The notes: generated from the letters alone by a model not told the origin. 32,000 bases of DNA from Gemmata obscuriglobus (GCF_008065095.1 NZ_CP042911.1:780001-812000), one strand, 5' to 3'; positions 2,547 through 26,225 are shown, numbered from the stretch's first letter. Program-made: numbers and translations.

Positions 2547-2575
2547 TTGACTGTGTCGCGCCACACGCCGATACT
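2547..2575 (+). promoter_or_regulatory. Sigma-70-like promoter candidate (TTGACT-17 nt-GATACT) for the protease gene
   Basis: TTGACT lies at 2547-2552, followed by a 17-nt spacer and GATACT at 2570-2575, about 38 nt upstream of the ATG at 2613. Planctomycete promoter rules are poorly defined, so this is tentative. Confidence 0.3.
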
Positions 2576-2612
2576 CGATGAAAACGTGTCACCCGAACTT
2601 CGGACGGTGCTC

Positions 2613-5783: not shown

Positions 5784-5797
5784 CCCCCCGACGCGTT

Positions 5798-5829
5798 CCC
5801 GGGCTGCCGTTGCAGCACGGCAACCCGGG
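5798..5829. terminator. GC-rich hairpin between convergent genes (possible bidirectional terminator)
   Basis: CCCGGGCTGCCG (5798-5809) pairs with CGGCAACCCGGG (5818-5829) with one mismatch, leaving an 8-nt loop. It lies 15 nt after the protease stop and 16 nt before the stop of the minus-strand gene. There is no clear U-tract. Confidence 0.4.
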
Positions 5830-5844
5830 GGCACGCTCAAGAGA

Positions 5845-6516
5845 TCATTCCTTCCCCAGCACCAGATCCACCACCCCGCACCCGCGGACGTGCGGCCCCG
5901 GCCCGCGGCAGTGGTTCAGGATGTCGTCGGAGTTACACCCGGCGTCCTGAAGCGCGTCCGCCAGGACCGGCATCGCAGAGAAGTCACGCGATTCGTACAT
6001 CTGCCCCGCCAGTGCGACAGCGGTGCCAGTGCGCCATTCGGGGGAGAAGGTAACAGGGCGGAACGGGTTGCCGAAGACCTCTCGTGCGATCGCAACGATG
6101 GTCGTCGGTGGGAACACACCGAGTTCGGTGATGGCCAAGTACTGATCGATATTCTCTGTTTCCCCGTCCAGCGCGAAGATGGCGTAGAACGCGGTTTGAA
6201 ACTCCGGCGCGTCTGCGATGCTCTGCGACATGCGCCCGGCCAGCAAGGGCTCGACTTGCAACCGGCCGGACAGTTCCCACATCGCAACCCGTGCGTCATA
6301 AAACGCCTGCTCACGCTGGGATCGTTCCAGCAGTCCGTCGGCGTCTTGTTCGGCCGCATCGACTGCTGCCCGCAACCGCGGATCGGTCGGTCGCGCTTGA
6401 AGGGTGCGAGCCAACGCGCAGGCGAAGAAGCGCAGCTTCCGGGCACTCGCGCGGGTGCGGAGGGCCTCCAACACCTCGGCCGGATCATCACACGCCAGCC
6501 ACTCCGCTTCGGTCAT
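5845..6516 (-). CDS. Conserved hypothetical protein of a paralogous family (N-term MTEAEWLACDDP..., C-term ...ADALQDAGC-x-SDDILNHCRG-x5-RGC-x-VVDLVLGKE)
   Basis: ATG at 6516 with GAGGG 8 nt upstream, 30 nt downstream of the CotH-like gene stop on the same strand. The N- and C-terminal sequence blocks resemble a multi-copy family I recall from Planctomycetes and Myxobacteria, with no known function. A truncated second copy lies at 8719-8916. Confidence 0.75.
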   Translation of the reverse strand: MTEAEWLACDDPAEVLEALRTRASARKLRFFACALARTLQARPTDPRLRAAVDAAEQDADGLLERSQREQAFYDARVAMWELSGRLQVEPLLAGRMSQSIADAPEFQTAFYAIFALDGETENIDQYLAITELGVFPPTTIVAIAREVFGNPFRPVTFSPEWRTGTAVALAGQMYESRDFSAMPVLADALQDAGCNSDDILNHCRGPGPHVRGCGVVDLVLGKE

Positions 6517-6546: not shown

Positions 6547-8658
6547 TTACTTCACGCTGACGGCGACCGGCGCGCTCCAGTTCCCGCAGCGCCCGGTGGC
6601 GTCGCGCCAGCGGGCGCGGACCCGGTACTCGCCCTTCTCCGCGAACACCTCGCGCGGGATCTCCACCGAACGCCCCTCCGCCACGTCCTTCCGCCAGTGG
6701 TTCGCCAGTTCGTACCAGCCCTTCTGGCCGACGCGCCCCACCCGCCACTCCAGCGCCGCGGACTTGGCCCCGGCGGGCGACGTGAACGCCGCGGCCTCGA
6801 ACGTGTAGCCGTTGGCCTTGGGGCGCGTCACCGCCGGTTTCGCCGGGATCTTGTCGTCTTTCGCCTCGTGCGCCAGGTAGCCCCAGCCGTAGCCGCGCTG
6901 GTCGCCGTCGTTGGGGGCGTAGTTCTTGACCGGGCGAACGTCGGTGCAGAACTCGATCAGGTACTTGCGGAACCCGGCGAAGTCGGCGGTCGCCAGCGTC
7001 CGCTTCCACGCGCCGCCGAAGTGGTCGCCGGTGGCCGGGTTGACGAAGTACGCGCCCTTCGGGTTGATTCGCGGGTGGTGGTTCCAGCGGGCTTCGTCCA
7101 GCCGCGGCCAGTCCACACGGAACCCTTTCGGCGTCAGCGCCGAACCGAGGTCGGACACCAACTGGCCGACCTGCCCGCCGCGGTCGGTGCCGTCGGCCGC
7201 GAACAGGTCGAGCACCTCGCGTGCCCGGTTGCGGTACTCCAGCGCGATCGCGGGGTGCTGGAGGCAGTTCGCCGCGTCGATGTAGCCCGGCTGGTGGTGC
7301 CGCGGGACGAACGTCATGTCCATGTCCCACGGGATCGGCGCCCAGCGCCCGTCCGGGCGGCGGTAGTACCCGTGGTTGCCGTCGGGCCGCAGGTCCACGT
7401 TGCCGAGCAGACGGTTCAGCGCGTGAAAGCTGAAATACGTCGGCAGGTCGAGGTTCTGGCGCCACCAGTCCTCTTTCGGGTTGGACCGCATCCCGTTAAG
7501 GAACTTGTCCCACTCCTTCTGGGCGTCCGTCATGCCCTTGGGGGTGTGCTTGATCCCGCTCTGGATGCTGACCGTCAGCCCGTCCGCCAGCGGCCGGTCG
7601 GCGAGCAGCTTGGGGTTCATTTCGCCGAGCGCGATGTAGACGCCCCACAGGTCGCCCGCGTACTGGTCCTTCGCGGCCACCTCGTCGGCCCCGGTGACCA
7701 CGCGCCACTGCACCCACGTCGCCTGCGGGCTGGGGACTCCGGCGAGCCGGTACGAGCGCATGCACAGCACCTCGTCCAGCCCGGTGATGCCGCGGTGGAC
7801 CGGCAGGTACGGCGTGGACCCGCCCGGGTTCAGGTCGAGGCTGTCGCACGAGACCGGGAACGGGACGCCGTCGTGATCGACCATCGGCACGTCGTGCCCG
7901 CGGGCGAACTTCAGCGCCCATTTGTTCTTGCCGGCGATGTGGGCGCTCCCCTGGCCGCGGTTGCTGTACTGGATGTGGTCGTACACGATTCCGCGGTAGA
8001 CGACCGTGCCCTGCTGCTTCTGCTTGTGGAAGTTTCCGTCCCACTGGCTCTTCGCAACGTCGTCCGCCCGCGCGAGCAGGTGTAAGGGTTGGAGCGTGTT
8101 GAGGAACGCCGCCGAGAACGCCAGCGGCAGCACCTTTCCGGGCTCGCGCGAACCGGTCCAGGTCGCGGGGCCGGCGTTGCACCACCACGCGAAGTTGGGG
8201 CAGGTGTCGTCGGCCGCCGGGAACCGCAGGGCTTTGCCCGCCCCGTCGGTCGCGGTGACCCGGTAGCGGAGCAGCCACCGGTGCTTCTGATACGTCGCCG
8301 GCACCCGAACGCTGAACACGCCGTCGCCGGCCTTCTCGTCGCCCTCCTTGCCGTCGTCCCGCATCGGGAGGTCGGTCCAGTCCTTCTCGTACTCGGCGTC
8401 GGCCTTGCGGACGTACTTCCCCGGCGCGACCGCTTGCAGCTTCAGGGTGACCTTCGTCACGTCGGCCGGCAGCTTCGCGGTCACCAACACCGGCACCCCG
8501 GGCCTCGGCGCGACGGGCTCGTGACGCGCCTCCCCAACCGCGAGCGGCTTTACCGCAGCGTCCGCTTTGCGCGGGGTATCGGTGGGCGGTTGAGCGAAGA
8601 CGGGTGAGGCGACGGTGACGAGCAGCCACGTAAGGAGCATCGGGAGCCGGTCGGTCAT
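6547..8658 (-). CDS. Secreted CotH kinase-family protein
   Basis: Signal peptide MTDRLPMLLTWLLVTVASPVFA. The central blocks YSNRGQGSAHIAGKNKWALKF, DLWGVYIALGEM and RWAPIPWDMDMTF resemble the conserved blocks of the CotH (spore-coat protein H, atypical kinase) family. The C-terminal ~100 aa look like a beta-sandwich tail. Confidence 0.8.
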   Translation of the reverse strand: MTDRLPMLLTWLLVTVASPVFAQPPTDTPRKADAAVKPLAVGEARHEPVAPRPGVPVLVTAKLPADVTKVTLKLQAVAPGKYVRKADAEYEKDWTDLPMRDDGKEGDEKAGDGVFSVRVPATYQKHRWLLRYRVTATDGAGKALRFPAADDTCPNFAWWCNAGPATWTGSREPGKVLPLAFSAAFLNTLQPLHLLARADDVAKSQWDGNFHKQKQQGTVVYRGIVYDHIQYSNRGQGSAHIAGKNKWALKFARGHDVPMVDHDGVPFPVSCDSLDLNPGGSTPYLPVHRGITGLDEVLCMRSYRLAGVPSPQATWVQWRVVTGADEVAAKDQYAGDLWGVYIALGEMNPKLLADRPLADGLTVSIQSGIKHTPKGMTDAQKEWDKFLNGMRSNPKEDWWRQNLDLPTYFSFHALNRLLGNVDLRPDGNHGYYRRPDGRWAPIPWDMDMTFVPRHHQPGYIDAANCLQHPAIALEYRNRAREVLDLFAADGTDRGGQVGQLVSDLGSALTPKGFRVDWPRLDEARWNHHPRINPKGAYFVNPATGDHFGGAWKRTLATADFAGFRKYLIEFCTDVRPVKNYAPNDGDQRGYGWGYLAHEAKDDKIPAKPAVTRPKANGYTFEAAAFTSPAGAKSAALEWRVGRVGQKGWYELANHWRKDVAEGRSVEIPREVFAEKGEYRVRARWRDATGRCGNWSAPVAVSVK

Positions 8659-9069: not shown

Positions 9070-9528
9070 ATGCGGCGCATTGTGCTCGCGGCGGGTGTGT
9101 TGTGCGCGGTGGCGGTAACAGGGCGCACCACAGCTCAGAACAGCTCGACCGGCTTCTCGACACCGGGTCAGGTGGTCGGCTCGTACAGCGGAAACTTGAA
9201 CCCGGTTGGTAACCGGTTGCCCCAGGTGGCGCCGCCCGTCGGTCAGGCGATTACCGGCAACGCTCAGCAGCGGCCGTACGACCCGAACCACCCCTACGAC
9301 GCCTTCAAGGGGAGCAGCTTCAGCCCGAACGATCTGGTGGCGCCGCTCGTCGGCCCGGACGGTCAACCGGTCCAACCGCCGGACGCGCTCGACCGGCTGT
9401 CCGAGAAGATCAAGGCGTTCTTCGTAAAGACCCCGGCGCCGCCGCCCCGTCCGCCGTACACCCCCGGCATCAGCCGCCGCAACAAGGAGCGGCGTGAGAT
9501 GCGTGAGATCCCCTGGCGCCGCGACTGA
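9070..9528 (+). CDS. Secreted Pro-rich hypothetical protein
   Basis: ATG at 9070 preceded by a G-run. The signal-like N-terminus is MRRIVLAAGVLCAVAVTGRTTAQ. Third-position GC is high. I recognise no domain. Confidence 0.55.
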   Translation: MRRIVLAAGVLCAVAVTGRTTAQNSSTGFSTPGQVVGSYSGNLNPVGNRLPQVAPPVGQAITGNAQQRPYDPNHPYDAFKGSSFSPNDLVAPLVGPDGQPVQPPDALDRLSEKIKAFFVKTPAPPPRPPYTPGISRRNKERREMREIPWRRD

Positions 9529-9558
9529 TGCGCCACGTTGGTTGCTCTGTATTTCTGT

Positions 9559-9579
9559 AGCTGGCCTCAGTGAGGCCAG
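9559..9579 (+). terminator. Perfect 10-bp-arm palindrome downstream of 9070-9528
   Basis: GCTGGCCTCA-G-TGAGGCCAGC lies 31 nt after the stop codon. No U-tract follows, so terminator function is uncertain. Confidence 0.3.
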
Positions 9580-9642
9580 CGCAACACGGATGATGCCGCG
9601 CAGGCCCATGTCGGTTCCGTGCTTACGAAAGCAAGTTTTGAG

Positions 9643-9701
9643 AGGATCAACAGGATCAACAGGATTTGAAATTGATCGGTCTTCAATCCTGTTGATCCTG
9701 T
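9643..9701. repeat. Tandem 9-mer (AGGATCAAC x2.5) forming the left arm of a 17-bp inverted repeat
   Basis: AGGATCAAC occurs at 9643-9651 and 9652-9660, followed by AGGAT. ACAGGATCAACAGGATT (9650-9666) is the exact reverse complement of AATCCTGTTGATCCTGT (9685-9701), with an 18-nt loop. Confidence 0.7.
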
Positions 9702-9800
9702 CAAAATCTTCTCGGCTTCTCCATTGAGCTTTGGTGCTGCGGTCTCGCCTCAGGCGGGACGTGGTCGCACGGCGCCGCGTGCGTTTGATACCGCCGCGTG

Positions 9801-9913
9801 TTCTTATTCCCGGTCCGGCTGGTATTGTCTGTTTCTTGTGACACAGACATTCCTGTCTGTGTGGCGTGAGAAGGCCGCACAGACAGGAATGTCTGTGCCA
9901 CAAAGACGAAACC
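9801..9913. repeat. Inverted pair of a short interspersed (REP/MITE-like) element; a third copy lies at 29811-29872
   Basis: Copy A ends ...CTTGTGACACAGACATTCCTGTCTGTGTGG (to 9863). Copy B (9875-9913) has the reverse complement GGTTTCGTCTTTGTGGCACAGACATTCCTGTCTGTGCGG. The two copies can pair into a ~38-bp hairpin. Each core also contains a mini-hairpin, ACAGAC-ATTCCT-GTCTGT. Confidence 0.75.
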
Positions 9914-9968
9914 AGAACGGACACCAACAGCCGGTTCGTGTTCTTGGCTGAGGCTCGCTTTCGCGCAC

Positions 9969-10490
9969 CTACTCCGTGAGCTGAAACGAGTTCAGAAACT
10001 CGTTCGCGAGGTCGGACTGTACGTAGGCGTCGGTGCCGATCACCATCACCTGATACAGTCGCGGGCCGACGACCCAGATCCGCGCCCGCATCGCCCCCCG
10101 CGTGGGCTGCGTGATCGACGCCGAGAACTCGCGCCCGGCGTACTTACCGGCCAGAACGTGCGAACCGCTCGACTCCTCTTTGCCGCCCGCGGCGCGGATC
10201 AGATCGCCTTTCGCCGAGTTCAGCACCCAGGGGACGAATTCCGGCGGCTCGTCGCCCTTCACCGGCAACTCCGTGACCGTGACCGAGCGGGCGCCGTCCG
10301 ACGTCTCGACCTTGTACGTCACCGACCGCGTGCCGCCAACGACCCGGTCGCTCGTCTGCGGGGCGATCCCGAACTTCACCTTGAACTTGTCCACCGTCGA
10401 GACGAACTCCGGCGCGTCCGCACAACCCGACACAACGCACGCCGCGAGCGCCAGAGCGCCGCCCAGCGCGCGGCGCGTGAACTGAACCAT
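9969..10490 (-). CDS. Lipoprotein, hypothetical (domain shared with the central part of the 2613-5783 protease)
   Basis: The ATG at 10490 is preceded by AGGAGA with a 7-nt spacer; the track start at 10508 is a GTG that overlaps this SD. A lipobox is present: LALAACVVSG-C. The C-terminal block GREFSASITQPTRGAMRARIWVVGPRLYQVMVIGTDAYVQSDLANEFLNSFQ parallels GAEFWLESRTGITRVRAYVHDRRIYLVRVTGTTGQVSGADAETILASFR in the protease. Confidence 0.7.
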   Translation of the reverse strand: MVQFTRRALGGALALAACVVSGCADAPEFVSTVDKFKVKFGIAPQTSDRVVGGTRSVTYKVETSDGARSVTVTELPVKGDEPPEFVPWVLNSAKGDLIRAAGGKEESSGSHVLAGKYAGREFSASITQPTRGAMRARIWVVGPRLYQVMVIGTDAYVQSDLANEFLNSFQLTE

Positions 10491-10613
10491 CGTTCGTTCT
10501 CCTCGCACCGGCGCCCGCTAGCTCACCTTCCGTCCCGCGCGCGCCGGGGGTATAACCACAGTGTAACCGGTCTTGTTCGAATGTTCACGCCCTCACCGCG
10601 ACGGTAACCACGC

Positions 10614-13600
10614 ATGGCGAAGTGCTTCTGCCACCTGCACCTGCACACCCACTACAGCCTGCTGGACGGGTTCAACCGCATTCAGCCGCTGGTGAAGCAG
10701 ACCAAAGAACTGGGCATGAACGCGGTCGCGATCACCGACCACGGGAACCTGTACGGCGCCATCGAATTCTACATGGAGTGCAAGAAGGGCGGCATCAAGC
10801 CCATCATCGGGTACGAGGCGTACCTGGCCCCCGGCTCGCGCCTCGACCGCGACAGCAAGGGCGAGCTCGGGTTCTCGACCCACCTCACGCTGCTGGCCCA
10901 GAACGAGACCGGGTTCAAGAACCTCATCAAGCTGTCCAGCAGCGCGTACCTGGAAGGGTTCTACCGCAACCCGCGCATCGACCGCCAGATCCTGGAGGCC
11001 CACAAGGACGGGCTCATCTGCCTCAGCGGGTGCCTGGCCGGCGAGTTCAACCAGTACATCATCAAGGACAAGCCGCAGGAGGCGGAGAAGACGGCCAAGT
11101 GGTTCCGCAAGGTGTTCGGCGAGAACTACTTCATCGAGATCCAGAACAACGGGATCGGGCTCCAGGACCAGTGCACGCCCGTGGCCGCGGACATCGCGAA
11201 CCGGCTCGGCGTCCCGCTCGTGGCCACCGCCGACGCGCACTACCTGTGCGCCGAGGACGCCCAGGCGCACGACATCCTGTTCTGCATCAACACGCGGCAG
11301 ATGCACGACCCGCGGAAGAAGAAGTACCCCGAAGAGCGGATGCCCAACCCGTACTTCGTCCGCAGCCCGGAGGACATGTACCGGCTGTTCCCCAACTACC
11401 AGGACGCGGTCGCGCGCAGCCAGGAGATCGCCGACAAGGTCAACATCGACCTGGACTTCAAGAAGCGGCACTTCCCGGTGTTCACCACCCCGGAGGGGCG
11501 CACCCCCGAGCAGTACCTGCGCGAGCTGTGCGAGCGGGGCATGGAGGAGCGGTACGAGGGGAAGGCGTCCGAGGCCGTGCGCAAGCGCCTCGACCACGAG
11601 CTGGGCATCATCGCGCGGATGGGGTTCTCGAGCTACTTCCTCATCGTGTGGGACTTCGTCCGGTTCGCGCGCGAGGAGGGCATCCCCTGCACGGCCCGCG
11701 GCTCCGGGTGCGGGGCCATCGTCTGCTACCTGCTGTACATGAGCCACGTCTGCCCGATCGAGTACGACCTGCTGTTCGAGCGGTTCCTCGACCCGAACCG
11801 GTCCGAGGCGCCCGACATCGACATCGACTTCTGCCAGGACCGGCGCGAGCTGGTCATCGACTACGTGAAGAAGAAGTACGGGGAGGAGTCCGTCGCGCAG
11901 ATCGGCACCTTCGGGACGCTGGCCGCGAAGGCCGCGCTCAAGGACGTGGGCCGCGTGCTCGGGCAGACGCCCGACCGCATGAACGCGCTGTGCAAGCTGG
12001 TGCCGATGAAGGGCGCCATCTCGAAGAGCCTGCAGGAGGCGCTGGACGAGTCCCCCGACTTCAAGCGCGAGTACGACCAGGACCCGAGCATCAAGCAGGT
12101 CGTGGACATCGCGCTGAAGTTAGAAGGCGCGAACCGGAACGTGGGCAAGCACGCCGCCGGGGTGGTGATCGCGAACGGCCCGGTCACGAACTACGTGCCG
12201 GTCCAGCGGCCGCCCAAGAAGGGCGGCAGCGACGAGGGCTCGGACGACACGACCACGATGACCACCCAGTGGGAAATGGGCATCCTGGAGAAGGTCGGCC
12301 TGCTGAAGATGGACTTCCTCGGGTTGCGGAACCTGACGGTCCTCGACAACTGCGTGAAGCTCATCAAGAAGACCCGCGGCATCACGGTCGAGCCGACGAA
12401 GTTCCCGCTCACCGACGAGGCCACGTACCAGTTGCTCCAGCGCGGCGACGCGAAGGGGGTGTTCCAGCTCGAAAGCGAGGGCATCCGCGAGCTGCTGAAG
12501 CGCATGAAGCCGGACAACATCCGCGACCTGATCGCGGTGCTGGCGCTGTACCGCCCCGGCCCGCTCGAGGGCGGGATGGTGGACGAGTACGTGGAGTGCA
12601 AGAACAAGCGGAAGCAGCCGTTCTACCCGCACCCGGTGATGGAAGAGGTGCTGAGTGAGACCTTCGCGGTGATGGTCTACCAGGAACAGATCATGCGGAT
12701 CCTGAACAAGCTCGGGGGGATCGAGCTCGCGAAAGCGTACGCGTGCATCAAGGCCATCAGCAAGAAGAACTTCGAGATCATCAACGCCCGCAAAGTGGAC
12801 TTCGTGACCGGCGCGAAGGAGCGCGGCCTGGAGGCCGAAAAGGCGGACGAGATCTTCGAGCTGATCGTGAAGTTCGGCGGGTACGGCTTCAACAAGTGTG
12901 TGGTCGCGGGGACCGAAGTGACGGACGCCGAAACGGGCGCGGTCGTTACCGTGGGCGAGCTGTTCGAGTCGCGCCGCGCGGTCACCGTTCACGCGCTGGG
13001 CGCCGACAGTAAGCTCCGCCCGCGCCCCGTGACCGACGTTGTGTGGAACGGGCGCAAGCGCGTGTACCGGCTCACGACCGAACTCGGCAAGAGCATCACC
13101 GCGACCGACAACCACCCGTTCCGCGTGCTGGACGGCTGGAAGAACCTCGGCGAGCTGAAGCCCGGGGACCGGATCGCCGCCCCGCGCCGCCTTGCGGTGC
13201 CGTCGGCCGGGACGTGGCCGCAACACGAAATCGTCGCGCTCGCCGGGCTGCTGTCGGAGGGCAACACCTGCCACCCGACAACGCTCTACTTTTACGGCAA
13301 CGACCGCGTGCTGATCGACGACTTCGCGCGCGCGATCGGTCAGTTCCCGGACACCGTGGCGAAGGTGTACGCGCGCCCGAACCGCCGGAACCTCGAAGTC
13401 CGGGCGAACACCGGGCGGGACACCCGTCTCAAGTCGCGCGCCGAGCGCGACGCGGCCGTCGCGTTGCTGGCCCCGCCGACGCGCTCGGGCGCGTTCGTGT
13501 GGGCGCAACGGCTCGGCATTCTTGGCAAGACGGCGACCGAGAAGTTCGTTCCGCACGACGTGTTCCGGCTGTGCGACTCCGACCTCGAACTGTTCTTGGG

Positions 13601-15467
13601 TCGGCTCTGGGCGGGCGACGGGTTCATCGCGAACGACACCCTGAAGGTGCCGTTCTACGCCACCTCGTCGCGCCGGTTGGCCCAAGACGTTCAGCACCTG
13701 CTGTTGCGCCTCGGCATCGTGGGCCGGATTCACGAGAAGCAGTTCAAGTACAAGGGCGGCTTGAAGCCCGGCTTCACGGTTCACCTGATCGGCGACGGCG
13801 CGGCCGAAGCGTTCCTCGACCGCATCGCCCCCCACTGCCTCGGGCGCGAGCACGCGGTCACGATCCTCCGGGAGCACGTTGCGACCACGGCGCGCGGGCT
13901 CACGAGCAAGGACACCGTGCCGCTCGAAGTTCGGGCCTGGGTTGACGACGGGCGCCGCGCGCGCGGGCTGACCTGGGACGAACTGGAGCAACAATCCGAC
14001 GTTTCGACGCAGGAATTTTACGGCACCCCCGCGCCCGGCAAAAAAGGGTTCCGGCGCGCCACGATTGCGAAACTGGCCGCGTTCTTCGGCTCCCAGCGGC
14101 TCGCGGCGGTCGCCGATTCGGACGTGTTCTGGGACCGCGTCGTTTCGATCGAGTACGCCGGGGTTCAGGACACTTACGACCTGACCGTTGATGAGGACCA
14201 CAACTTCGTCGCGAACGGGCTGATCGTCCACAACTCGCACACCGCGGCGTACGCGCAGATCGGGTACCAGACCGCGTACCTGAAGACGCACTACACCGCC
14301 GAGTACATGGCCGCGCTGCTGTCGAGCGAGATCGACGACGGCAACAAGCGCGACGTGTTCATCGACCACATCTCCGACGCCCGCCGGCTCGGCGTCGACG
14401 TGCTCCCGCCGGACGTGAACCGCGGGATGGCCGACTTCGACGTGCTGAACAACCGCATCATCTTCGGCCTGACGGCCATCAAGGGGGTCGGGCGCGGCGC
14501 GGCGCTCGAGATCGTCCGGGCGCGCAACGAGGGGGGGAAATTCAAGGACCTGTTCGACTTCTGCGAGCGGGTCGACCGGCGCATCATCGCCAAGGCGGCG
14601 GTCGAAGGGATGATCCAGGCCGGGGCGTTCGACGTGTTCGGGAAGCGGTCGGCGCAGTTCGCCGCCGTCGCGAAGGCGTACGCGGTGGCCGACCAGCGCG
14701 CCGCCGAGAAGCGCAAGGGGCAGACCGGACTGTTCGACGACGTGGAGGAGGCGGCCGACGCCGGCCCCACCAACCAGGGCCTGACGGACGTGCCCGAGTG
14801 GCCCGAGACCGAGCGCCTGAAGTTCGAGAAGGAGGCGCTGGGGTTCTACATCTCGAGCCACCCGCTCGCGCAGCACGACGAGCAGTTGCGCCGGTTCCGC
14901 ACCCACGACTGCGGGGTGCTCGCGAAGGGCGGGAAGAACGGCACCGAGGCGCGCATCGCCGGGATGATCACCAACCTCGACGTGCGCACCGCGAACAAGG
15001 GCCGCAACATCGGTCGCAAGTACGCCATGTTCCGCATCGAGGACTTCACCGGGTCCGTGCGGTGCATCATGTGGTCCGACGAGTACTCGCGGTTCCGCGA
15101 GCTGGTCAGCTCGGACACGGTCGCGATCTTCGAGGGCGTGCTGAACTGGGCGCCGGACCGGGCCGAGCCCGACTTCGGGGTCAAGAAGCTCATCACGATG
15201 GAGGAGGCCCGCACCGAGTTCACCAAGAGCCTGGTGCTGAAGGTCGCGTACTCCGAGGTCGACGAGGACCTGCGCAAGCTCGAGGCCGTCAGCGTGATCC
15301 TGAAGCGGTACCGGGGGCCGTGCCCGGTGTACCTGAGCATCCGCGACGGTAACGGGAAGCAGGTCCAGTTGAAGATGAGCGAGGAGTACAAGGTGAACCC
15401 GGCGGCGGTGAAGCTCGAAGAGCTGGAAATGCTGCTCGGCCAGGGGTCCGTGATCTTCTCGCGCTGA
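10614..15467 (+). CDS. dnaE: DNA polymerase III alpha subunit (DnaE), interrupted by an in-frame intein
   Basis: The N-terminal PHP domain reads HLHLHTHYSLLDG...AITDHGNLYG. The polymerase core and the C-terminal OB region are present. Length is 1616 aa, or ~1170 aa without the intein, which is typical for DnaE. The conserved motif GYGFNKSH is split as GYGFNK / intein / SHTAAYA. Confidence 0.95.
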   Translation: MAKCFCHLHLHTHYSLLDGFNRIQPLVKQTKELGMNAVAITDHGNLYGAIEFYMECKKGGIKPIIGYEAYLAPGSRLDRDSKGELGFSTHLTLLAQNETGFKNLIKLSSSAYLEGFYRNPRIDRQILEAHKDGLICLSGCLAGEFNQYIIKDKPQEAEKTAKWFRKVFGENYFIEIQNNGIGLQDQCTPVAADIANRLGVPLVATADAHYLCAEDAQAHDILFCINTRQMHDPRKKKYPEERMPNPYFVRSPEDMYRLFPNYQDAVARSQEIADKVNIDLDFKKRHFPVFTTPEGRTPEQYLRELCERGMEERYEGKASEAVRKRLDHELGIIARMGFSSYFLIVWDFVRFAREEGIPCTARGSGCGAIVCYLLYMSHVCPIEYDLLFERFLDPNRSEAPDIDIDFCQDRRELVIDYVKKKYGEESVAQIGTFGTLAAKAALKDVGRVLGQTPDRMNALCKLVPMKGAISKSLQEALDESPDFKREYDQDPSIKQVVDIALKLEGANRNVGKHAAGVVIANGPVTNYVPVQRPPKKGGSDEGSDDTTTMTTQWEMGILEKVGLLKMDFLGLRNLTVLDNCVKLIKKTRGITVEPTKFPLTDEATYQLLQRGDAKGVFQLESEGIRELLKRMKPDNIRDLIAVLALYRPGPLEGGMVDEYVECKNKRKQPFYPHPVMEEVLSETFAVMVYQEQIMRILNKLGGIELAKAYACIKAISKKNFEIINARKVDFVTGAKERGLEAEKADEIFELIVKFGGYGFNKCVVAGTEVTDAETGAVVTVGELFESRRAVTVHALGADSKLRPRPVTDVVWNGRKRVYRLTTELGKSITATDNHPFRVLDGWKNLGELKPGDRIAAPRRLAVPSAGTWPQHEIVALAGLLSEGNTCHPTTLYFYGNDRVLIDDFARAIGQFPDTVAKVYARPNRRNLEVRANTGRDTRLKSRAERDAAVALLAPPTRSGAFVWAQRLGILGKTATEKFVPHDVFRLCDSDLELFLGRLWAGDGFIANDTLKVPFYATSSRRLAQDVQHLLLRLGIVGRIHEKQFKYKGGLKPGFTVHLIGDGAAEAFLDRIAPHCLGREHAVTILREHVATTARGLTSKDTVPLEVRAWVDDGRRARGLTWDELEQQSDVSTQEFYGTPAPGKKGFRRATIAKLAAFFGSQRLAAVADSDVFWDRVVSIEYAGVQDTYDLTVDEDHNFVANGLIVHNSHTAAYAQIGYQTAYLKTHYTAEYMAALLSSEIDDGNKRDVFIDHISDARRLGVDVLPPDVNRGMADFDVLNNRIIFGLTAIKGVGRGAALEIVRARNEGGKFKDLFDFCERVDRRIIAKAAVEGMIQAGAFDVFGKRSAQFAAVAKAYAVADQRAAEKRKGQTGLFDDVEEAADAGPTNQGLTDVPEWPETERLKFEKEALGFYISSHPLAQHDEQLRRFRTHDCGVLAKGGKNGTEARIAGMITNLDVRTANKGRNIGRKYAMFRIEDFTGSVRCIMWSDEYSRFRELVSSDTVAIFEGVLNWAPDRAEPDFGVKKLITMEEARTEFTKSLVLKVAYSEVDEDLRKLEAVSVILKRYRGPCPVYLSIRDGNGKQVQLKMSEEYKVNPAAVKLEELEMLLGQGSVIFSR
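12897..14234 (+). mobile_element. Full-length intein (446 aa) with LAGLIDADG homing-endonuclease domain inside dnaE
   Basis: It starts at Cys (TGT, 12897-12899) directly after FNK. Block B is TATDNHPF. The LAGLIDADG-type motifs are LAGLLSEGN and FLGRLWAGDGF. Blocks F/G read VQDTYDLTVDEDHNFVANGLIVHN, ending in His-Asn (AAC, 14232-14234) and followed by Ser +1. All splicing residues appear intact. Confidence 0.9.
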
Positions 15468-17867: not shown

Positions 17868-18929
17868 TCAAACCGTCACCTGCTGCTCAGGCGCGGGCGG
17901 GGCGGACGAGGTGATGAGTCGGATGACCGCCCGGTTGCGCCCGTCGCTTTTCGCCTCTTTGAGCGCCCGGGCGGACACGTCGCGCAGTTGCTCGTAGGTC
18001 ACCGGCACCCCGGCCTCCGCGACCGCCACCCCGAGGCTGATCGTCATGCGGATCAGTTGGCCGTCGTAGACGGTATGAGCAGCCTGAACGTGAACCCGCA
18101 GCCGCTCGGCCAGCGCTTCTGCGCCGACGAGGTCGGTCCCGGGTGCGAGCACGAGGAACTCCTCGCCGCCGACCCGCCCGAGTGAGTCGGTCGTGCGGAT
18201 CGACGCCTGCAGAACCCCCGCGAGCCACACCAGCACCTGGTCGCCGGCGATCTGTGAAAACTCTTTGTTCACTCGGCCGAAGTGGTCGGCGTCGATCCAC
18301 ACGACCGCCAGCGGCCCCGGCATCCGCCCCCGGCGTTGGATCTCTTTTCGCGCGGCTTCGTCAATGGCACGCCGATTCGCCAACCCCGTCAGCGGGTCGG
18401 TCGCGGCCATCTTTTCGAGGATTTCATTCGCCTGCTGAAGTTTCCCGAGAGCGTGTTCCAGTTCCTGGGTGCGGGTTTGCACCCGCTGCTCCAGTTCGAG
18501 ATTCAGCTTACGCAACTCATCCAGAAGGTGTTCGTGGCTCCTCTCCAGGAGCAACGCGCGTGAAATTGCCCGCAACGTTTGCAGTAAATCCTCCGACCGC
18601 CACGGTTTGAGAACGAGACGGTGGACCTGACTGTGGTTGATGGCGTCGACCGCGTCTTGCATCCGGGCTGTTCCGGTGATAAGCACGCGGGCGGTGCGGG
18701 GGGCCGTTCGGCGCACCCAATCAAGAAGGAAGAGGCCCGTTTCATCCGGGAGCTGAAGGTCCGAAAGGACGATGTCAACGGACCGCTGCGTCAGAATCGC
18801 CCGCGCCTGAACCGCGGTGCAAGCCGTTGTAACGTCAAAATCCCCGCCGAGTTGCGCCGCGAGCACCGCGAGTATCGCGGGGTCGTCGTCCACAACCAGG
18901 ACCGAGCATTTGTACCGTGTGACGTTCAT
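17868..18929 (-). CDS. Response regulator receiver + GGDEF diguanylate cyclase (PleD/WspR-like)
   Basis: The REC domain reads VLVVDDDPAIL...DIVLSDLQLPDETG...KPW. A coiled-coil linker follows. The GGDEF domain reads DPLTGLANRR...IDADHFGRVN...GGEEF, with an intact I-site RTTD five residues upstream of GGEEF. The start at ATG 18929 (MNVTRYKCSVLVVDDD) is preferred; ATG 18971 is also possible. Confidence 0.9.
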   Translation of the reverse strand: MNVTRYKCSVLVVDDDPAILAVLAAQLGGDFDVTTACTAVQARAILTQRSVDIVLSDLQLPDETGLFLLDWVRRTAPRTARVLITGTARMQDAVDAINHSQVHRLVLKPWRSEDLLQTLRAISRALLLERSHEHLLDELRKLNLELEQRVQTRTQELEHALGKLQQANEILEKMAATDPLTGLANRRAIDEAARKEIQRRGRMPGPLAVVWIDADHFGRVNKEFSQIAGDQVLVWLAGVLQASIRTTDSLGRVGGEEFLVLAPGTDLVGAEALAERLRVHVQAAHTVYDGQLIRMTISLGVAVAEAGVPVTYEQLRDVSARALKEAKSDGRNRAVIRLITSSAPPAPEQQVTV

Positions 18930-19181
18930 GAACGGGCTCGCCCCCACCATCACAGGCGCTCGCGGGAGCACTGGGCATGTGGAGAAAGTTAGGACACCCC
19001 CGGCCGCCGTCTCGTTACCAGTACGAATTTAAACGAACGGGTTAGAAAAAGAGGGCAGGCGGGTTTCGCATTTTACAACTATCGAGGCGGCCGCGACCAG
19101 CCACACAACGAGAAACTTGGCAGTCGTGAAATGTGAATGGAGTTCGAACGAAGAAAATGCCGAATTTGTTTGTCTTGACGC

Positions 19182-21474: not shown

Positions 21475-22185
21475 TCACACCTTCACCCCGGCCAGCAGTT
21501 CCTTCCACTTCTTGACCCGGACCGCGTCGATCACGCCGTCACGTTTACCCGCCGCGCACGCGGACGTGCGCACCGCGAAGTAATCCGGCGCTACGCCCTT
21601 GAGCTGCTTCAACTGCTCGGGACGCAGCGAGCCCCCCACCACGACCGTTGTGTACACGCGCTTCAACCCGTCGACGAGCGCGGCGATGTCCTTTGCGGGC
21701 ATGAAGTCGAGCAGCGTTTTGCCGTCCTTGCCCCACGTGTCGAGCAGGAACGCCTTGAACCGGAACCGCTTCGCGAACTTCGCCACTTCGGCCGGCGGGA
21801 CCGACTTCGCGCGCTCCCAGTCGGCGTAGGCGACCGCGACCATCTCCGTCCCGATGGGCAACTCGCGGCGGGTGTCGAGCAGGTCTTCGCCCCAGCCCGG
21901 GGCCGGCGCGTAGCCCGCGAGGCCCCACTTCACGTACTGGAGCGGCAGTTCGAGGTGCCAGTGCGCCTCGGTGATGGCGTTCGGCGACCACTCGCCCAGC
22001 GCCGCGCTCACGGGCGCCTTGCCGTCCACCGCGTCAATGACCGCCGCAACGACCTCCGCTTCCGCCGGCGCCAGGGGGCCTTTCAGCGGCTCCTTCACGT
22101 CGATGACGTCCGCTCCGCCTTCCAGGGCCGCCGCCACTTCTGCCGCCGACCGCACGCTGACCAACAGTCCGGGCGTGGTGCTCAT
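21475..22185 (-). CDS. mfnB: MfnB-like 4-(hydroxymethyl)-2-furancarboxaldehyde-phosphate synthase family protein (DUF556-type TIM barrel)
   Basis: The ATG at 22185 (GGAAGGA upstream) gives MSTTPGLLVSVRSAAEVAAALEGGADVIDVKEP. The blocks FLLDTWGKDGKTLLDF and FAVRTSACAAGKRDGVID match the conserved blocks I recall from archaeal and methylotroph MfnB. The 122-codon upstream extension in the track is Arg/Pro-rich and unlikely to be coding. Confidence 0.75.
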   Translation of the reverse strand: MSTTPGLLVSVRSAAEVAAALEGGADVIDVKEPLKGPLAPAEAEVVAAVIDAVDGKAPVSAALGEWSPNAITEAHWHLELPLQYVKWGLAGYAPAPGWGEDLLDTRRELPIGTEMVAVAYADWERAKSVPPAEVAKFAKRFRFKAFLLDTWGKDGKTLLDFMPAKDIAALVDGLKRVYTTVVVGGSLRPEQLKQLKGVAPDYFAVRTSACAAGKRDGVIDAVRVKKWKELLAGVKV

Positions 22186-22565
22186 AACAGGGTGATTCCT
22201 TCCACCGCGAAGAAGAACGATCCGTTCGGGGCGGGCATGATAAGCGATCCGGCGCACATTTTGAAACCCGAACCGGCCCGGCGGGTGGCGCGCGAGCGTT
22301 CCCGGGCCGCCGGACCCCACCCGCGGGCGGGTGAGCCGAATTTGTTTTTGCGCCCGACACGAACGCCCGAACGCCGCGAGTGCGTGCCGGAGCGGGCGAA
22401 CGGTGTCCGCTCGCGCGAGCGGTTCAGCGGCGGCGCGAACCGGGGGCGCGAACCGGCCGGGGCTTTGCCAAACCTCACGGCCTGCTCTACAGACTATTAG
22501 CCCCTTACCCCGTCCGTCTCGCCCCCGCGGCGCGGCGGCTCGGCTCCCCAACGTGGCTCCGTGTT

Positions 22566-25500
22566 ATGCCGGTCCGACTGGTCAGTCACGAAGAGCTGCC
22601 GCACCCGCTCAACGGGTACCGGCTGATCGAGCGCCTCGGCCGGGGCGGGTTCGGCGAGGTGTGGAAGATCGAGGCGCCGGGCGGGATGCTCAAGGCGGCC
22701 AAGTTCGTGTTCGGCGACCTGGACGCGATGGACGAGGACAGCCGCCCCGCCGAGCAAGAGCTCAAAGCGCTCGAGCGCGTCAAGCTGATCCGCCACCCCT
22801 ACATTTTGACGCTCGAACAGTTCCGGGTGATCGACGGCCAGCTCATCATCGTGATGGAGCTGGCCGACCGCAACCTGTGGGACCGGTTCCGCGAGTGCCG
22901 GGGCCAGGGGCTGCCCGGCATCCCCCGCGACGAGCTCCTCCGCTACATGGAGGAGGCCGCGGAGGGGCTGGACCTGATGAACAACCACTACCAGATCCAG
23001 CACCTCGACGTGAAGCCGCAGAACCTGTTCCTGCTGTTCAGCCACATCAAGGTCGCGGACTTCGGCCTCGCCAAGGTGCTCGAGGGGGTGCGCGCGACGG
23101 TGACCGGCGGGGTGACGCCGGTGTACGCGGCGCCGGAGACGTTCGAGGGCTGGGTGTCGCGGTTCTCGGACCAGTACAGCCTCGCCATCGTGTTCCAGGA
23201 GCTGCTCACCGGGGCGCGGCCGTTCACCGGCTCGAACACCCGCCAGCTCCTGATGCAGCACATCAACGGCACCCCGGACCTGAGCGCGCTGCCGCTGGCC
23301 GACCGCGCCATCGTCGGGCGGGCGCTGTCGAAGCGCCCCGACGACCGGTGGCCCAGTTGCACGGAGCTGGTCCGCGCCCTGAAGACGAGCGGGCTGCCGC
23401 CGCCGCCCCCGACCCCGACCCCGGCGCAAACGCAGCCGGAGCCGCCGGGGCGGCCCCGCCGCGCCGTGCCCGGGTCGGGGGCGCCGACGATGCCGGCCGC
23501 GGCGGGCCACGCGCTGGCCGACTCGATCCAGGTGACGCGCGTGGCCGGCGGGGCCGGGCAACTGGGCGGCGCGGCCGCGCCAGGGCTCACGCCGCCGCCG
23601 ACCCAGCTCCCGCCCCTGATCAAGCCCGGGGGGAGCCCGGCGTACACGCCGCTGCCCGCGCTGGTGCCCCCGAGCCCCTCCGGCGGGCGGCTCGTGCCCC
23701 CGGGCTCGGCGGCGCTGAACCCCGCCCAGACGCTGAACCGCCCCGTCGTCATGCCGACCGGGCGGATGGGGAGCATGGGCATCGCGCCGCCGGAGCGGTC
23801 CGGGGACGGGGCGCTGTTCCCGGCGCTGGTGGTCGCCCTCGGCCACACCGGGCGGCGGGTGGTCGAGCAGTTGAAGCGCATCATCACCGACCGGCACGGG
23901 GCCGCCGAGCGGGTGCCGCACGTGCGCATCCTGCACATCGACACGGACCCGGGCGCCGGCGGGGCCGACGGGTCCGACCCCGCCGGGCTGACCGTGCGGG
24001 AGGTGGTCCCCGCGCGGCTGAACCGGTCCACCCACTACATGCAGCGGGACGGGCTGCCCCCGGTCGAGCAGTGGATGCCGACCGGGTCGCTGTACCAGCT
24101 GCCGCGGAACCCCGGGCCGGCGGCCGGGGTGCGGGCGTTCGGCCGGCTCGCCCTGTTCGACCACTACCGCGCCGTCGCGCAGCGGGTGCGCCAGGAGATC
24201 GAGACGTTCCTGACCGACGACCCGCTGCACCAAGCGGACAAGGCCACGAGCCTGGGGCTGCGCACCAACCGCCCGCGGGCGTACGTGATCGCGGGGCTGG
24301 CCGGCGGCACCGGGAGCGGCATGTTCCTGGACGTGGCGTACCTGCTGCGCCACGAGCTGCGCCAGGTCGGCTACCTGCGGCCCGAGGTGGTGGGGGTGTT
24401 CTTCGTGCCCCGCGCGGAGGTGACCTCCCCGCGCAACGCGGCGCTGGCGAACACCTACGCGGCGCTCGCCGAGCTGCACCACTTCCAGTCGAAGCGGACC
24501 CGCTACCAGACGGTTTTCGACAAGTCCGAGGCCCCGGTGACCGACGGCGAGCCCCCGTTCGCCCGGGTGATGATCGCGCAGCTCCCCAAAAGCGCCGACG
24601 AGGCCGCGGCGCGGCCGATCACCGGGGCGACGGCGCGGGCGCTGTTCCACGAGCTGCTCACCCCGACCGGGCGCGTCGCGGACGAGGGCCGCGACGTGTA
24701 CTGCCGGGCGTACCCGACCGACGCGCCGACGTGCCAGACGTACGGGCTGTTCCGGCTCAGCTGGCCGCGGCCCGAGGTGCTCGCGGCGGCCACCCGGCGG
24801 CTCGCGCAGCGCCAGCTCCAGCGGTGGACCGGGAAGGACGCGGCCCACCTGCGCGAGCACATCGCCGCGTGGCTCGGGCAGCAGTGGGCCGACCGCAACC
24901 TGGCGTTCGACGCGGTGGTCGAGGCGCTCCAGGGGGCGGCCCGGGCCGCCCTCCGCGAGGACCCCGAGAGGGTGTTCGACGCGTTCATCGATCCGCTCCG
25001 CACCCGCACCCCGTCCGGCGGGCGGATGGACGCCACGTCCGCCTGCTCGGTGCTCGACCAGCTCATCAAGCTGGTGGGCAAACCGGACATCGAGAACGAC
25101 CCGCAAACGGGCACCCTGCACGCCGCGATGAGCCGGAAGTTCGACGAGCTGGTGAAGGAAACCGAGGGGCACGTCTCGGTGATGGCGGCCACGTTCCTGG
25201 AGGTGCCGCAGTACCGGCTGCCGGGCGCCGAGGAGGCGGTGCGGCAGATCGCCGAGCGGCTGAAGGTGCAGGTCGACGCGCTGGAGGGGGTGCGGGCGGA
25301 CCTGGACCGCGAGGTGCGGACCGTGTACGCCCGGCTGTTCAGCGCGATCGGGAGCCTGGGCGGCACCGGCCTCGGCGCGATGGCGAGCCGCAAGGCGAAC
25401 GCCGCCGAGGTGCTCGACCACCTGCGCGCGTACCCGCGCAAGCGGCTGCAGCTGCACACGCTCGACCTGGCCCTGTCGGTGTTCCGCAAGCTGCTGGGGA

Positions 25501-26225
25501 ACGCCCCGGAGTACCTGCGGGAGATCAACTTCTGCCGCTCGACCCTGGGCGAGATGCACGCGGCGCTGGGCGCGGCCGGCGGCCCCGGCGGCGCGCCCGA
25601 CGCCCCGGGCAAGCTGATCCTGCCGGACGGGTGCAAGGGCCTGGACGACGCGGCCGACCTGTTCCTCGCCGGGATCGCCCCGGAGGACCTGCTCGCGTTC
25701 GACCAGGCGCTCCAGCGGGACATCACCCGCAAGTTCCGCGGGCTGGGCAACGTGTGCCTGAAGCCGCTGGAGAAGGGGCCGCCGCTGCGCGAGCTGCTGC
25801 TGAAAAAGGCCCGTGAGTTCCTCGACGCGAAGCTCGACCACTCGGACGCCGCGGCCGTGTTCTTCCGCTCGCGGACCGAGAACGGGACCGCGCAGCCGCT
25901 GCTCGGCGAGGCGTTCGAGGAGGCGTCCCCGGAGCTGATCCCGAACGTGTTCCCGCGGCCCTACGAAATGGTGGTGTTCGGCACCCCGCCCGGCCCGGAC
26001 GGCGACCGGCTCCAGGAGCTGGCGAAGCAGGTGCTGCCGGAGACCGAGTTCGTGGGCGCGCCGCTGCCGGACGACATCTGCTTCTACCGCGAGTACCCGC
26101 AGCTGAAGCTGGCCGACCTGCCGCAACTGGGGGAGTACGCGCGGGAGGCGTACCAGCAGATGGTCGCCGGCGGCGCGTTCCCGCACGCCCGCACCGACGT
26201 GCCCTGGCAGCTCCCGATCACGTAA
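22566..26225 (+). CDS. Ser/Thr protein kinase fused to a tubulin/FtsZ-superfamily-like (Tubulin_2-type) GTPase module and a long helical C-terminal region
   Basis: ATG at 22566. The Hanks kinase motifs are GRGGFGEV, LKAAKFV, HLDVKPQN, VADFGLAK and VYAAPE (~22614-23385). A Pro-rich linker spans ~23386-23808. The following module contains VVALGHTGRRVV, ILHIDTDPG, AAGVRAFGRLALF and AYVIAGLAGGTGSGMFLDVAYLL, with GGTGSG encoded at 24303-24320. About 570 aa with no recognised motif follow. Confidence 0.9.
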   Translation: MPVRLVSHEELPHPLNGYRLIERLGRGGFGEVWKIEAPGGMLKAAKFVFGDLDAMDEDSRPAEQELKALERVKLIRHPYILTLEQFRVIDGQLIIVMELADRNLWDRFRECRGQGLPGIPRDELLRYMEEAAEGLDLMNNHYQIQHLDVKPQNLFLLFSHIKVADFGLAKVLEGVRATVTGGVTPVYAAPETFEGWVSRFSDQYSLAIVFQELLTGARPFTGSNTRQLLMQHINGTPDLSALPLADRAIVGRALSKRPDDRWPSCTELVRALKTSGLPPPPPTPTPAQTQPEPPGRPRRAVPGSGAPTMPAAAGHALADSIQVTRVAGGAGQLGGAAAPGLTPPPTQLPPLIKPGGSPAYTPLPALVPPSPSGGRLVPPGSAALNPAQTLNRPVVMPTGRMGSMGIAPPERSGDGALFPALVVALGHTGRRVVEQLKRIITDRHGAAERVPHVRILHIDTDPGAGGADGSDPAGLTVREVVPARLNRSTHYMQRDGLPPVEQWMPTGSLYQLPRNPGPAAGVRAFGRLALFDHYRAVAQRVRQEIETFLTDDPLHQADKATSLGLRTNRPRAYVIAGLAGGTGSGMFLDVAYLLRHELRQVGYLRPEVVGVFFVPRAEVTSPRNAALANTYAALAELHHFQSKRTRYQTVFDKSEAPVTDGEPPFARVMIAQLPKSADEAAARPITGATARALFHELLTPTGRVADEGRDVYCRAYPTDAPTCQTYGLFRLSWPRPEVLAAATRRLAQRQLQRWTGKDAAHLREHIAAWLGQQWADRNLAFDAVVEALQGAARAALREDPERVFDAFIDPLRTRTPSGGRMDATSACSVLDQLIKLVGKPDIENDPQTGTLHAAMSRKFDELVKETEGHVSVMAATFLEVPQYRLPGAEEAVRQIAERLKVQVDALEGVRADLDREVRTVYARLFSAIGSLGGTGLGAMASRKANAAEVLDHLRAYPRKRLQLHTLDLALSVFRKLLGNAPEYLREINFCRSTLGEMHAALGAAGGPGGAPDAPGKLILPDGCKGLDDAADLFLAGIAPEDLLAFDQALQRDITRKFRGLGNVCLKPLEKGPPLRELLLKKAREFLDAKLDHSDAAAVFFRSRTENGTAQPLLGEAFEEASPELIPNVFPRPYEMVVFGTPPGPDGDRLQELAKQVLPETEFVGAPLPDDICFYREYPQLKLADLPQLGEYAREAYQQMVAGGAFPHARTDVPWQLPIT

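Follow-up and report, generated by a model that had tools for sequence, protein, structure and literature searches.

A planctomycete Ser/Thr kinase fused to an FtsZl1 (Tubulin_2) domain in Gemmata obscuriglobus: architecture, family context and candidate functions

Introduction

FtsZl1, the most diverged family of the tubulin/FtsZ superfamily, was defined by Makarova and Koonin in 2010 from searches in the vicinity of Ser/Thr kinases (PMC2875224). Its members were described as having a coiled-coil C-terminal part and no identifiable T6-H7 region. They are often associated with kinases, vWA proteins and GTPases, coexist with FtsZ in other phyla and are vertically inherited in Planctomycetes; according to the same authors, all characterised members of the superfamily form filaments (PMC2875224). 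In Planctomycetes, the domain is fused to an N-terminal kinase (PMC9871819, PMC11032199). Here, we analyse one such fusion, encoded in a 32,000-nucleotide stretch of the Gemmata obscuriglobus genome (NZ_CP042911.1:780001-812000), referred to as the window. The protein is cytoplasmic and belongs to the FtsZl1 (Pfam Tubulin_2) branch of the tubulin/FtsZ superfamily; its N-terminal Hanks-type kinase marks the form specific to planctomycetes.

Among the domains joined to cytoplasmic Ser/Thr kinases in Planctomycetota, the tubulin-like one is the most frequent, and it is missing from the kinases of Uabimicrobium and Saltatorellus (PMC11032199). Planctomycetes divide without FtsZ, by a mechanism that is unknown (PMC6952346, PMC11032199). 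The supplement of the 2010 study lists a G. obscuriglobus protein, GI 168700390, as a ‘probable serine/threonine protein kinase’ of 3660 nt with a downstream Do-protease/PDZ-type gene. A second Gemmata paralogue and proteins from Pirellula, Rhodopirellula and Blastopirellula are further entries, and Planctomyces has none (PMC2875224). The window gene has the same 3660 nt and the same type of downstream neighbour, and GI 168700390 is its listed counterpart.

The architecture is therefore already known and its novelty is low: the genome-scan finding is a rediscovery of a catalogued arrangement, of which the domain-level reading is real and correct. A preliminary description, made from the sequence alone, had known of no functional account of this architecture. 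This holds for function, as our literature searches found no functional study of an FtsZl1 / Tubulin_2 kinase fusion, but the architecture itself has been catalogued since 2010 as FtsZl1 or Tubulin_2 and the fusion appears in both later papers cited above. New here are the conservation down to about 30% identity, a C-terminal part of 485 residues without a significant structural relative, ten tandem loci and a link to FHA-EAL genes in 44 of 50 Pirellulales-type loci. The kinase fusions are the only tubulin-fold proteins reported in Planctomycetes by the papers cited. They form a large, strongly conserved family which is relevant to FtsZ-less division, and whether FtsZl1 proteins polymerise, and for what, is a question now 15 years old.

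Several known systems offer points of comparison. In mycobacteria, the Hanks kinase PknA phosphorylates FtsZ in trans. The window protein likewise ties a Ser/Thr kinase to a tubulin-fold GTPase, but in one polypeptide and with a GTPase that is not FtsZ. Roco / LRRK2-type proteins combine a GTPase and a kinase in one chain, the GTPase (Roc) being a Ras-like P-loop enzyme. By analogy the window protein may work like them, since a switch that binds nucleotide and a Ser/Thr kinase share, in cis, one large scaffold of several domains; unlike them, it has no Walker A motif and a tubulin-fold GTPase, and it shows no homology to them beyond the kinase. Finally, actinobacterial PknB forms with FhaA or GarA a module of Hanks kinase and FHA reader. 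Pirellulales relatives of the window protein resemble it in having an FHA gene in their 5-kb flanks, fused to the kinase gene once. In contrast to that module, their FHA domain is joined to an EAL cyclic di-GMP (c-di-GMP) phosphodiesterase and their kinase to a tubulin-like domain, and the link does not occur beside the Gemmata-type gene.

The gene and its product

The gene occupies positions 22566–26225 of the plus strand, stop codon included, and its translation gives 1219 codons and a stop without interruption. The window is very GC-rich and several long open reading frames (ORFs) overlap at this place. This frame was taken as the coding one because its third-position GC content (GC3), compared with that of the overlapping ORFs, is 0.97. 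An alignment of 34 homologues shows a shared N-terminal MP(V)RL. Since the homologues begin at the same MPVRL, the start was assigned to the ATG at 22566 and not to an upstream GTG at 22380. Along the gene the GC content is 0.73–0.76, against 0.61–0.72 elsewhere in the window; this composition is not island-like and represents a shift towards a more strongly native codon bias. Over the queried residues 401–1219, the product is 95% identical to a protein named ‘tubulin-like doman-containing protein [Gemmata sp. JC717]’ by NCBI.

No segment of the protein is hydrophobic enough to span a membrane (maximum Kyte-Doolittle value 1.48). For this reason, and because such kinases are classed as cytoplasmic (PMC11032199), we consider it cytoplasmic. 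A motif search of the translation recovered every motif quoted in the preliminary description once and at its reported residue, among them VVALGHTGRRV (422–432), HIDTDP (457–462), AAGVRAFGRLALF (519–531) and AYVIAGLAGGTGSGMFLDVAYLL (572–594). The absence of a Walker A motif was likewise borne out, with zero GxxxxGK[ST] matches in the 1219 residues.

The tubulin-like domain

The FtsZl1 / Pfam Tubulin_2 domain covers residues 421–749 (23826–24812, plus strand). Tubulin_2 (PF13809) matches this segment over positions 1–353 of 356, with an E-value of 4.3e-42 and 145.1 bits against a cut-off of 27; this full-length match makes the protein a member of the family, where it falls in the planctomycete clade. 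Together with that of Pkinase (see below), this score lies far above chance. The window protein departs from canonical FtsZ and tubulin in several respects. Pfam Tubulin (PF00091) stays below its gathering score, with 14.2 bits versus 33 at residues 573–627 (the T4-T5 segment), and reaches 24–26 bits in distant relatives. Pfam detects no FtsZ_C or Tubulin_C domain in the protein, which has instead an extra C-terminal region of 470 residues and the fused kinase. At the sequence level, a search of PDB chains with residues 405–1219 gave nothing meaningful (a vimentin coiled coil at E 0.2), and a 28-sequence family profile of the domain retrieved neither tubulin nor FtsZ from the PDB.

Structural comparison is more informative. 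An AlphaFold2 model of residues 405–1219, built from 106 sequences, has a mean predicted local distance difference test score (pLDDT) of 91.2 and a predicted template modelling score (pTM) of 0.77. The best 50 Foldseek matches of this model in the PDB are all α-, β- or γ-tubulins or FtsZ (E 1.2e-4 to 7.9e-3, probability 1.00, 316–387 aligned columns). The model thus predicts a tubulin/FtsZ fold, shared with FtsZ, tubulin, TubZ, PhuZ and BtubAB; the fold appears very diverged, since the template modelling (TM) scores normalised by target are only 0.32–0.48. Its secondary structure runs S1-(T1)-H1-S2-(T2), followed by an insert of about 60 residues between T2 and T3, helices around G521-x-R523-x-x-G526-R527, and then S4-(T4)-H4-S5-H5-hairpin-S6.

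Three nucleotide-binding loops of the superfamily can be recognised, and their conservation was followed in 80 diverse members at 34–61% identity. The T1-like Gly loop past strand S1 (residues 424–430, A-L-G426-H-T-G429-R; 23835–23855, plus strand) has an invariant G426, and G429 is found in 76/80. The T2-like HIDTDP (residues 457–462; 23934–23951, plus strand) retains D459 in 76/80, T460 in 71/80 and D461 in 74/80. Alignment with hhalign, of low probability, placed the two loops on VIGVGGGG and NTDAQ of Escherichia coli FtsZ, respectively. The T4 segment A-G-G-T-G-S-G (residues 579–585; 24300–24320, plus strand) is the best preserved, with invariant G580 and G585, G581 in 74/80, T582 in 73/80, G583 in 79/80 and, further on, D589 in 79/80; the consensus L-[AG]-G-G-T-G-[SG]-G-M-F-x-D is kept nearly throughout. 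AGGTGSG fits the pattern [SAG]GGTG[SA]G, which we take to be the PROSITE tubulin signature. Judged by their residues, the T1, T2 and T4 loops are intact.

The preliminary description had read GGTGSG as the tubulin T4 loop, and hence the region as a tubulin/FtsZ-like module. In the model, AGGTGSG sits between a strand (571–577) and a helix (581–600), the strand-loop-helix setting of T4. With the strong profile match and a fold shared with tubulin and FtsZ only, none of the computational outcomes that would have spoken against this assignment was observed.

The second half of the fold is less clear. By sequence, T6-H7-T7, which hydrolysis coupled to polymerisation requires, is not alignable with hhalign of family alignments against E. 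coli FtsZ; an unalignable T6-H7 was described for FtsZl1 at large (PMC2875224). In the superfamily, the T7 synergy loop holds the catalytic Asp or Glu by which the active site of the neighbouring subunit is completed. The hhalign comparison aligned just S1-T1-H1-S2-T2, with a probability of 11–23%; it was discarded as a means of placing T7, as it stops short of this loop. Beyond S6, the model shows a 20-residue helix (679–698), a kink T699-P-T-G702, a 16-residue helix (700–715) and an 11-residue strand (722–732), which could be H7-T7-H8-S7. Within this candidate segment G702-R-x-A-D706 is moderately conserved, and the D706 position is acidic in 64/80 members.

The kinase domain and the linker

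The Hanks-type Ser/Thr kinase domain extends over about residues 18–272 (22617–23381, plus strand). Pfam Pkinase matches residues 18–235 (E 4.6e-30, 105.3 bits versus a cut-off of 31.7), and this match above the gathering score, together with the full catalytic motif set, identifies a Hanks-type kinase. The motif set had been called complete in the preliminary description and indeed comprises GRGGFGEV (25–32), AAK (44–46), HLDVKPQN (146–153), DFG (165–167) and APE (189–191). The catalytic residues are K46, E63 or E65 as the αC glutamate, H146-L-D148-x-K150-x-x-N153, D165-F-G167 and A189-P-E191. With HLD replacing HRD, the kinase is of the non-RD type. H146, D148, K150, N153, DFG, P190 and E191 are invariant across the 80 representatives and K46 is kept in at least 90% of them. 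Because these residues are invariant in such diverse members, the kinase is catalytically complete in its motifs and probably active.

Profiles from defence-system collections also match this domain, as is discussed below. The corresponding PADLOC and NCBIfam assignments were rejected, since the matches comprise the kinase domain only and fall far below the cut-offs.

A Pro/Gly/Ala/Thr-rich linker follows (about residues 273–411; 23382–23798, plus strand). Its Pro-rich character, also noted earlier, is confirmed by the composition of residues 275–415 (24% Pro, 15% Gly), and it is probably disordered. Within the close Gemmata-type clade (35-sequence alignment), T324, T389 and T398 do not vary, and in distant members the linker is highly variable and rich in Ser, Thr and Pro.

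The C-terminal region

Residues 750–1219 (24813–26222, plus strand) form a family-specific region without any Pfam match, predicted as a long helical stalk followed by a small α/β domain. A separate AlphaFold2 model of residues 735–1219 (485 residues; pLDDT 90, pTM 0.79) shows stalk helices of 48 and about 68–69 residues ahead of the small domain. In this helical, coiled-coil-like extension, unrelated to FtsZ_C and Tubulin_C, the protein again resembles other FtsZl1 members. The preliminary description had taken the approximately 570 residues past GGTGSG as helical: this is right for the stalk, but in the model the tubulin-like α/β part continues to about residue 735, and a small α/β domain closes the chain.

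A Foldseek search of the PDB with these 485 residues found no significant relative (best E 6.7e-3, TM at most 0.33, root-mean-square deviation above 29 Å). The top matches, ClyA-family α-pore-forming toxins, were dismissed as a generic likeness of long helical bundles and not homology. The region accompanies Tubulin_2 in every one of the 150 best representatives. Near its end, the alignment of 80 members reveals a tail motif, P-H-x-R1209-x-D1211-[IV]-x-W1214 (26181–26207, plus strand), in which R1209 and D1211 are invariant, H1207 is found in 73/80 and W1214 in 75/80. The Pirellulales branch keeps this motif as RLHTRxDVxW. It may serve as a docking site, as an arginine finger or as a peptide bound by a partner.

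The family and its paralogues

An exhaustive HMMER search with residues 400–1219 over 1.84 billion representatives matched 3825 proteins at E 1e-3, 1784 at 1e-10 and 469 at 1e-30, the 3825 being representative clusters. The 150 best matches align over the tubulin-like and C-terminal parts, and in full-length relatives the match starts near residue 350–390 of a protein of about 1150–1250 residues. All eight distant members tested (8/8, 28–39% identity) are Pkinase plus Tubulin_2. Besides the residues named above, R523, G526, P570, E636, P734 and W754 are invariant over the 80 members. All parts, the kinase motifs and the 800-residue tubulin-like/C-terminal module, are conserved together down to about 30% identity.

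Ten Gemmataceae loci, mostly from Fimbriiglobus, carry tandem paralogues, that is, two full-length kinase-Tubulin_2 genes that follow each other on one strand with less than about 100 nt between them. The loci are L009, L010 (9974–13558 and 13619–17200), L011, L012, L017, L018, L026, L031, L051 and L068. The first gene, of A type, is the orthologue of the window gene, with 52% identity in L010; its neighbour, of B type, is 36% identical to the window protein, and A and B share 38%. The kinase and T4 motifs are intact in both. The window carries the A type only, and A and B types are unlinked in several metagenome-assembled genomes and in G. obscuriglobus. The tandem arrangement is compatible with a hetero-oligomer.

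In L009, a gene for ScpA, the SMC kleisin, lies about 170–220 nt downstream of the tandem pair (9490–10953, plus strand). This ORF as called includes a methyltransferase domain and probably represents two genes. Its cluster recurs in six further loci; the Pfam scan covered L009 only.

The Pirellulales branch and its FHA-EAL genes

When a Pirellulales member was used as the query, all 120 of the top 120 matches were Pkinase plus Tubulin_2. One of them, a protein of 1565 residues, has the order FHA-EAL-Pkinase-Tubulin_2, with FHA and EAL ahead of the kinase. In four genome loci, an FHA-EAL gene is directly upstream (a gap of about 9 nt), nearby or fused (L084 4838–5992, L086 4828–5991, L085 3047–4147, L087 6001–10698), and a divergent Response_reg-GGDEF (RR-GGDEF) gene is also present.

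To put numbers on this association, we considered 85 Pirellulales-type loci, 84 newly fetched (L084–L167) and L080, and counted the 50 with at least 3.3 kb of upstream sequence. An FHA-EAL gene is present in the 5-kb flanks of 44/50: directly upstream on the same strand in 24, upstream on the opposite strand about 1.7–2.2 kb away in 19, and downstream in one, with none found in these flanks in the remaining six. RR-GGDEF genes occur in 23/50 of the same loci. A consensus of 60 FHA-EAL proteins retains the EAL, DDFG, KxD, EGxE and QG catalytic motifs of E. coli PdeH. A single case of this kind, in Pirellula staleyi, had been raised by a reviewer of the 2010 paper and set aside by its authors as lineage-specific (PMC2875224); with the present data, the association is clade-wide in Pirellulales. 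By analogy, an adjacent or fused FHA gene is what one classically finds in genomes where a kinase is paired with a reader of its phospho-threonines. The Pirellulales type is about equally close to the A and B paralogues of Gemmataceae (375 versus 368 bits).

In L085, where the FHA-EAL gene is on the opposite strand, a 444-residue protein with a Walker-A-like segment is encoded 15 nt upstream of the kinase-tubulin gene (4651–5985, plus strand). It shows weak AAA/NACHT matches at residues 174–199 and may belong to the diverged P-loop GTPase family found with FtsZl1 by Makarova and Koonin.

Candidate functions

On balance, we lean towards a GTP-regulated, self-associating (assembly-coupled) kinase scaffold which is read out by FHA partners, a proposal that we hold to be somewhat probable. 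GTP binding to the tubulin-like domain would control self-association into a dimer, oligomer or filament, perhaps as an A/B hetero-oligomer with the paralogue. Self-association would juxtapose the kinase domains and allow their mutual phosphorylation on the Thr-rich linker, and the resulting phospho-threonines would recruit FHA-domain partners. In Pirellulales, the partner would be the c-di-GMP phosphodiesterase FHA-EAL, from the neighbouring gene or as part of the fusion, by which the assembly state could be converted into a phosphorylation and c-di-GMP signal. The RR-GGDEF genes of 23/50 Pirellulales-type loci, and one such gene 3.6 kb upstream in the window, are in line with this picture. 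Across the wider clade, only the FHA-EAL signalling protein stands out as a strong and conserved partner, and this points to signalling no less than to mechanics. As handles on such a mechanism, the analysis offers a structural model of high confidence, candidate residues in the catalytic parts and the tail, and a paralogue pair, to which Pirellulales add a predicted FHA-EAL interaction partner linking the system to c-di-GMP.

Several points weigh against this scaffold. Its three steps, GTP binding, self-association and autophosphorylation, are inferences. In Gemmata, the gene of the reader does not lie beside the kinase-tubulin gene; the FHA-EAL link is absent beside Gemmata-type genes, and carrying it over to the window gene means extrapolating. 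Conservation of the linker threonines is confined to the close clade, and the tandem paralogues may also reflect a recent duplication layout. The FHA-EAL example of L084 has, in our reading of its sequence, degenerate EAL motifs. Lastly, the GGDEF protein of the window and the Pirellulales RR-GGDEF proteins share only domain-level similarity (31%), and a connection of the window GGDEF gene with the Pirellulales module is speculative. A more specific version, in which a GTP-driven A/B hetero-filament switches on its own kinase and locally controls c-di-GMP via FHA-EAL as part of budding or cell-cycle control in the FtsZ-less Gemmatales and Pirellulales, seems improbable to us.

Other readings must be considered; the scaffold, filament, switch and defence readings overlap, and which of them holds depends on whether the protein polymerises. 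The first is a cytomotive filament, favoured by Makarova and Koonin and by the preliminary description. The protein would polymerise head to tail with GTP hydrolysis and act mechanically in budding, in division or in the remodelling of membranes, its kinase tuning assembly. The tubulin/FtsZ fold with its conserved T4 signature suits such a role, as do the filaments formed by all characterised superfamily members (PMC2875224), the lack of FtsZ and the unknown budding mechanism of Planctomycetota. The A/B tandem paralogues are reminiscent of α/β-tubulin and BtubA/B, and the ScpA gene downstream of the tandem pair in L009 (its ORF cluster occurs in seven loci, with L009 alone Pfam-scanned) might hint at the same. 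The structural evidence is divided: the candidate H7-T7-H8-S7 with G702-R-x-A-D706 could supply the missing elements, but T6-H7-T7 is not sequence-alignable, the candidate acidic residue is not invariant, and neither FtsZ_C or Tubulin_C (Pfam) nor a membrane-targeting segment was found. No division or cell-wall genes were found nearby, and FtsZl1 coexists with FtsZ in other phyla. A general planctomycete division motor is excluded, because the 2010 list has no Planctomyces entry and the domain is absent from the Uabimicrobium and Saltatorellus kinases. The polymerising cytoskeletal or membrane-remodelling element suggested in the preliminary description therefore did not gain support, having no alignable T6-H7-T7, no membrane anchor and no division, vWA or OmpA genes in its surroundings. 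We regard the filament as unlikely, though as the likeliest of the alternatives.

Still less likely in our view is a nucleotide switch that does not polymerise, that is, a monomeric or dimeric GTP sensor gating the kinase in cis, like Roc in Roco/LRRK2, with no higher-order assembly. Such a switch would account for GTP-binding loops that are retained while the polymerisation elements (T7 and the C-terminal domain) are not recognisable, and its partners, here too, would be signalling proteins. The large private C-terminal domain could also block longitudinal contacts, a concern voiced by a reviewer of the original paper (PMC2875224). Yet rigid allosteric coupling in cis is unlikely across a disordered linker of about 130 residues, oligomerisation is the better fit for the long helical stalk and the tandem paralogues, and PMC2875224 cites no member of the superfamily that does not polymerise.

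An anti-phage or conflict system, with the kinase as effector or sensor and the tubulin-like domain as an NTP-dependent assembly switch, is very improbable: the PADLOC mad6 and PD-T4-6 kinase models match residues 7–291 (E 1e-43 to 1e-41), NCBIfam MAD6 scores 80.9 bits, and in other phyla FtsZl1 shares operons of several genes with vWA, GTPase and kinase proteins (PMC2875224), but these matches span the generic kinase domain alone, the 80.9 bits compare with a curated NCBIfam cut-off of 460, the surroundings are of the housekeeping kind (dnaE, a sigma factor, 4-HFC-P synthase) without partner genes nearby in the window, the synteny with 4HFCP_synth is kept across Gemmatales (34/64 loci), inheritance in Planctomycetes is reported to be vertical (PMC2875224), the composition is not island-like, and patchy presence or absence at the strain level was not seen.

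Gene neighbourhood in the window and in Gemmatales

Unlike most FtsZl1 genes of other phyla, which share operons with genes for vWA, OmpA-like and P-loop GTPase proteins and for separate kinases, the window gene has its kinase fused and no partners adjacent. Its neighbours encode DnaE with an intein, a Response_reg-GGDEF protein, a sigma-70 factor, 4-HFC-P synthase, a PDZ protein (downstream), a BBP7 porin and an MCP. No vWA, OmpA-like or P-loop GTPase genes are found within the window, and the operon setting that is frequent, not universal, for FtsZl1 is missing here. Division or cell-wall genes are found neither in the window nor among the conserved neighbours.

A scan of 185,579 species genomes returned at least 535 loci, of which the best 80 are nearly all from Gemmatales, plus two from Pirellulales. 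Neighbours were clustered de novo in 83 loci, and no vWA, OmpA, GTPase or FHA-EAL genes recur around the Gemmata-type gene in this set. The conservation of neighbours, which the preliminary description had proposed to survey, is thus limited to one gene: a divergent 4HFCP_synth is kept in 34 of the 64 loci that extend 1.5 kb or more upstream (median gap 204 nt), but other partners are not conserved. In the window, this gene (PF04476, MfnB-like; 21475–22551, minus strand) is divergent and immediately upstream of the kinase-tubulin gene. The pairing persists where both proteins are only about 35–40% identical to those of the window, and we see in it a synteny kept at the level of the order; a functional link is not evident. 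The ORF of 358 residues, called from a TTG, is probably over-extended, as homologues have about 232–237 residues.

The Response_reg-GGDEF diguanylate cyclase gene of the window (17868–18971, minus strand) is conserved in the Gemmata loci L003, L004 and L037. In the Gemmataceae locus L007, an FHA-only gene follows the kinase-tubulin gene.

Other genes of the window can be noted briefly. A 703-residue protein (6547–8658, minus strand) has a CotH kinase-like domain and a 1079-residue protein (2544–5783, plus strand) an N-terminal trypsin-like peptidase domain, both being otherwise unannotated. The DNA polymerase III alpha subunit (DnaE, 1617 residues; 10614–15467, plus strand) is split by an intein with a LAGLIDADG homing endonuclease (Intein_splicing at residues 774–1207, LAGLIDADG_3 at 993–1071).

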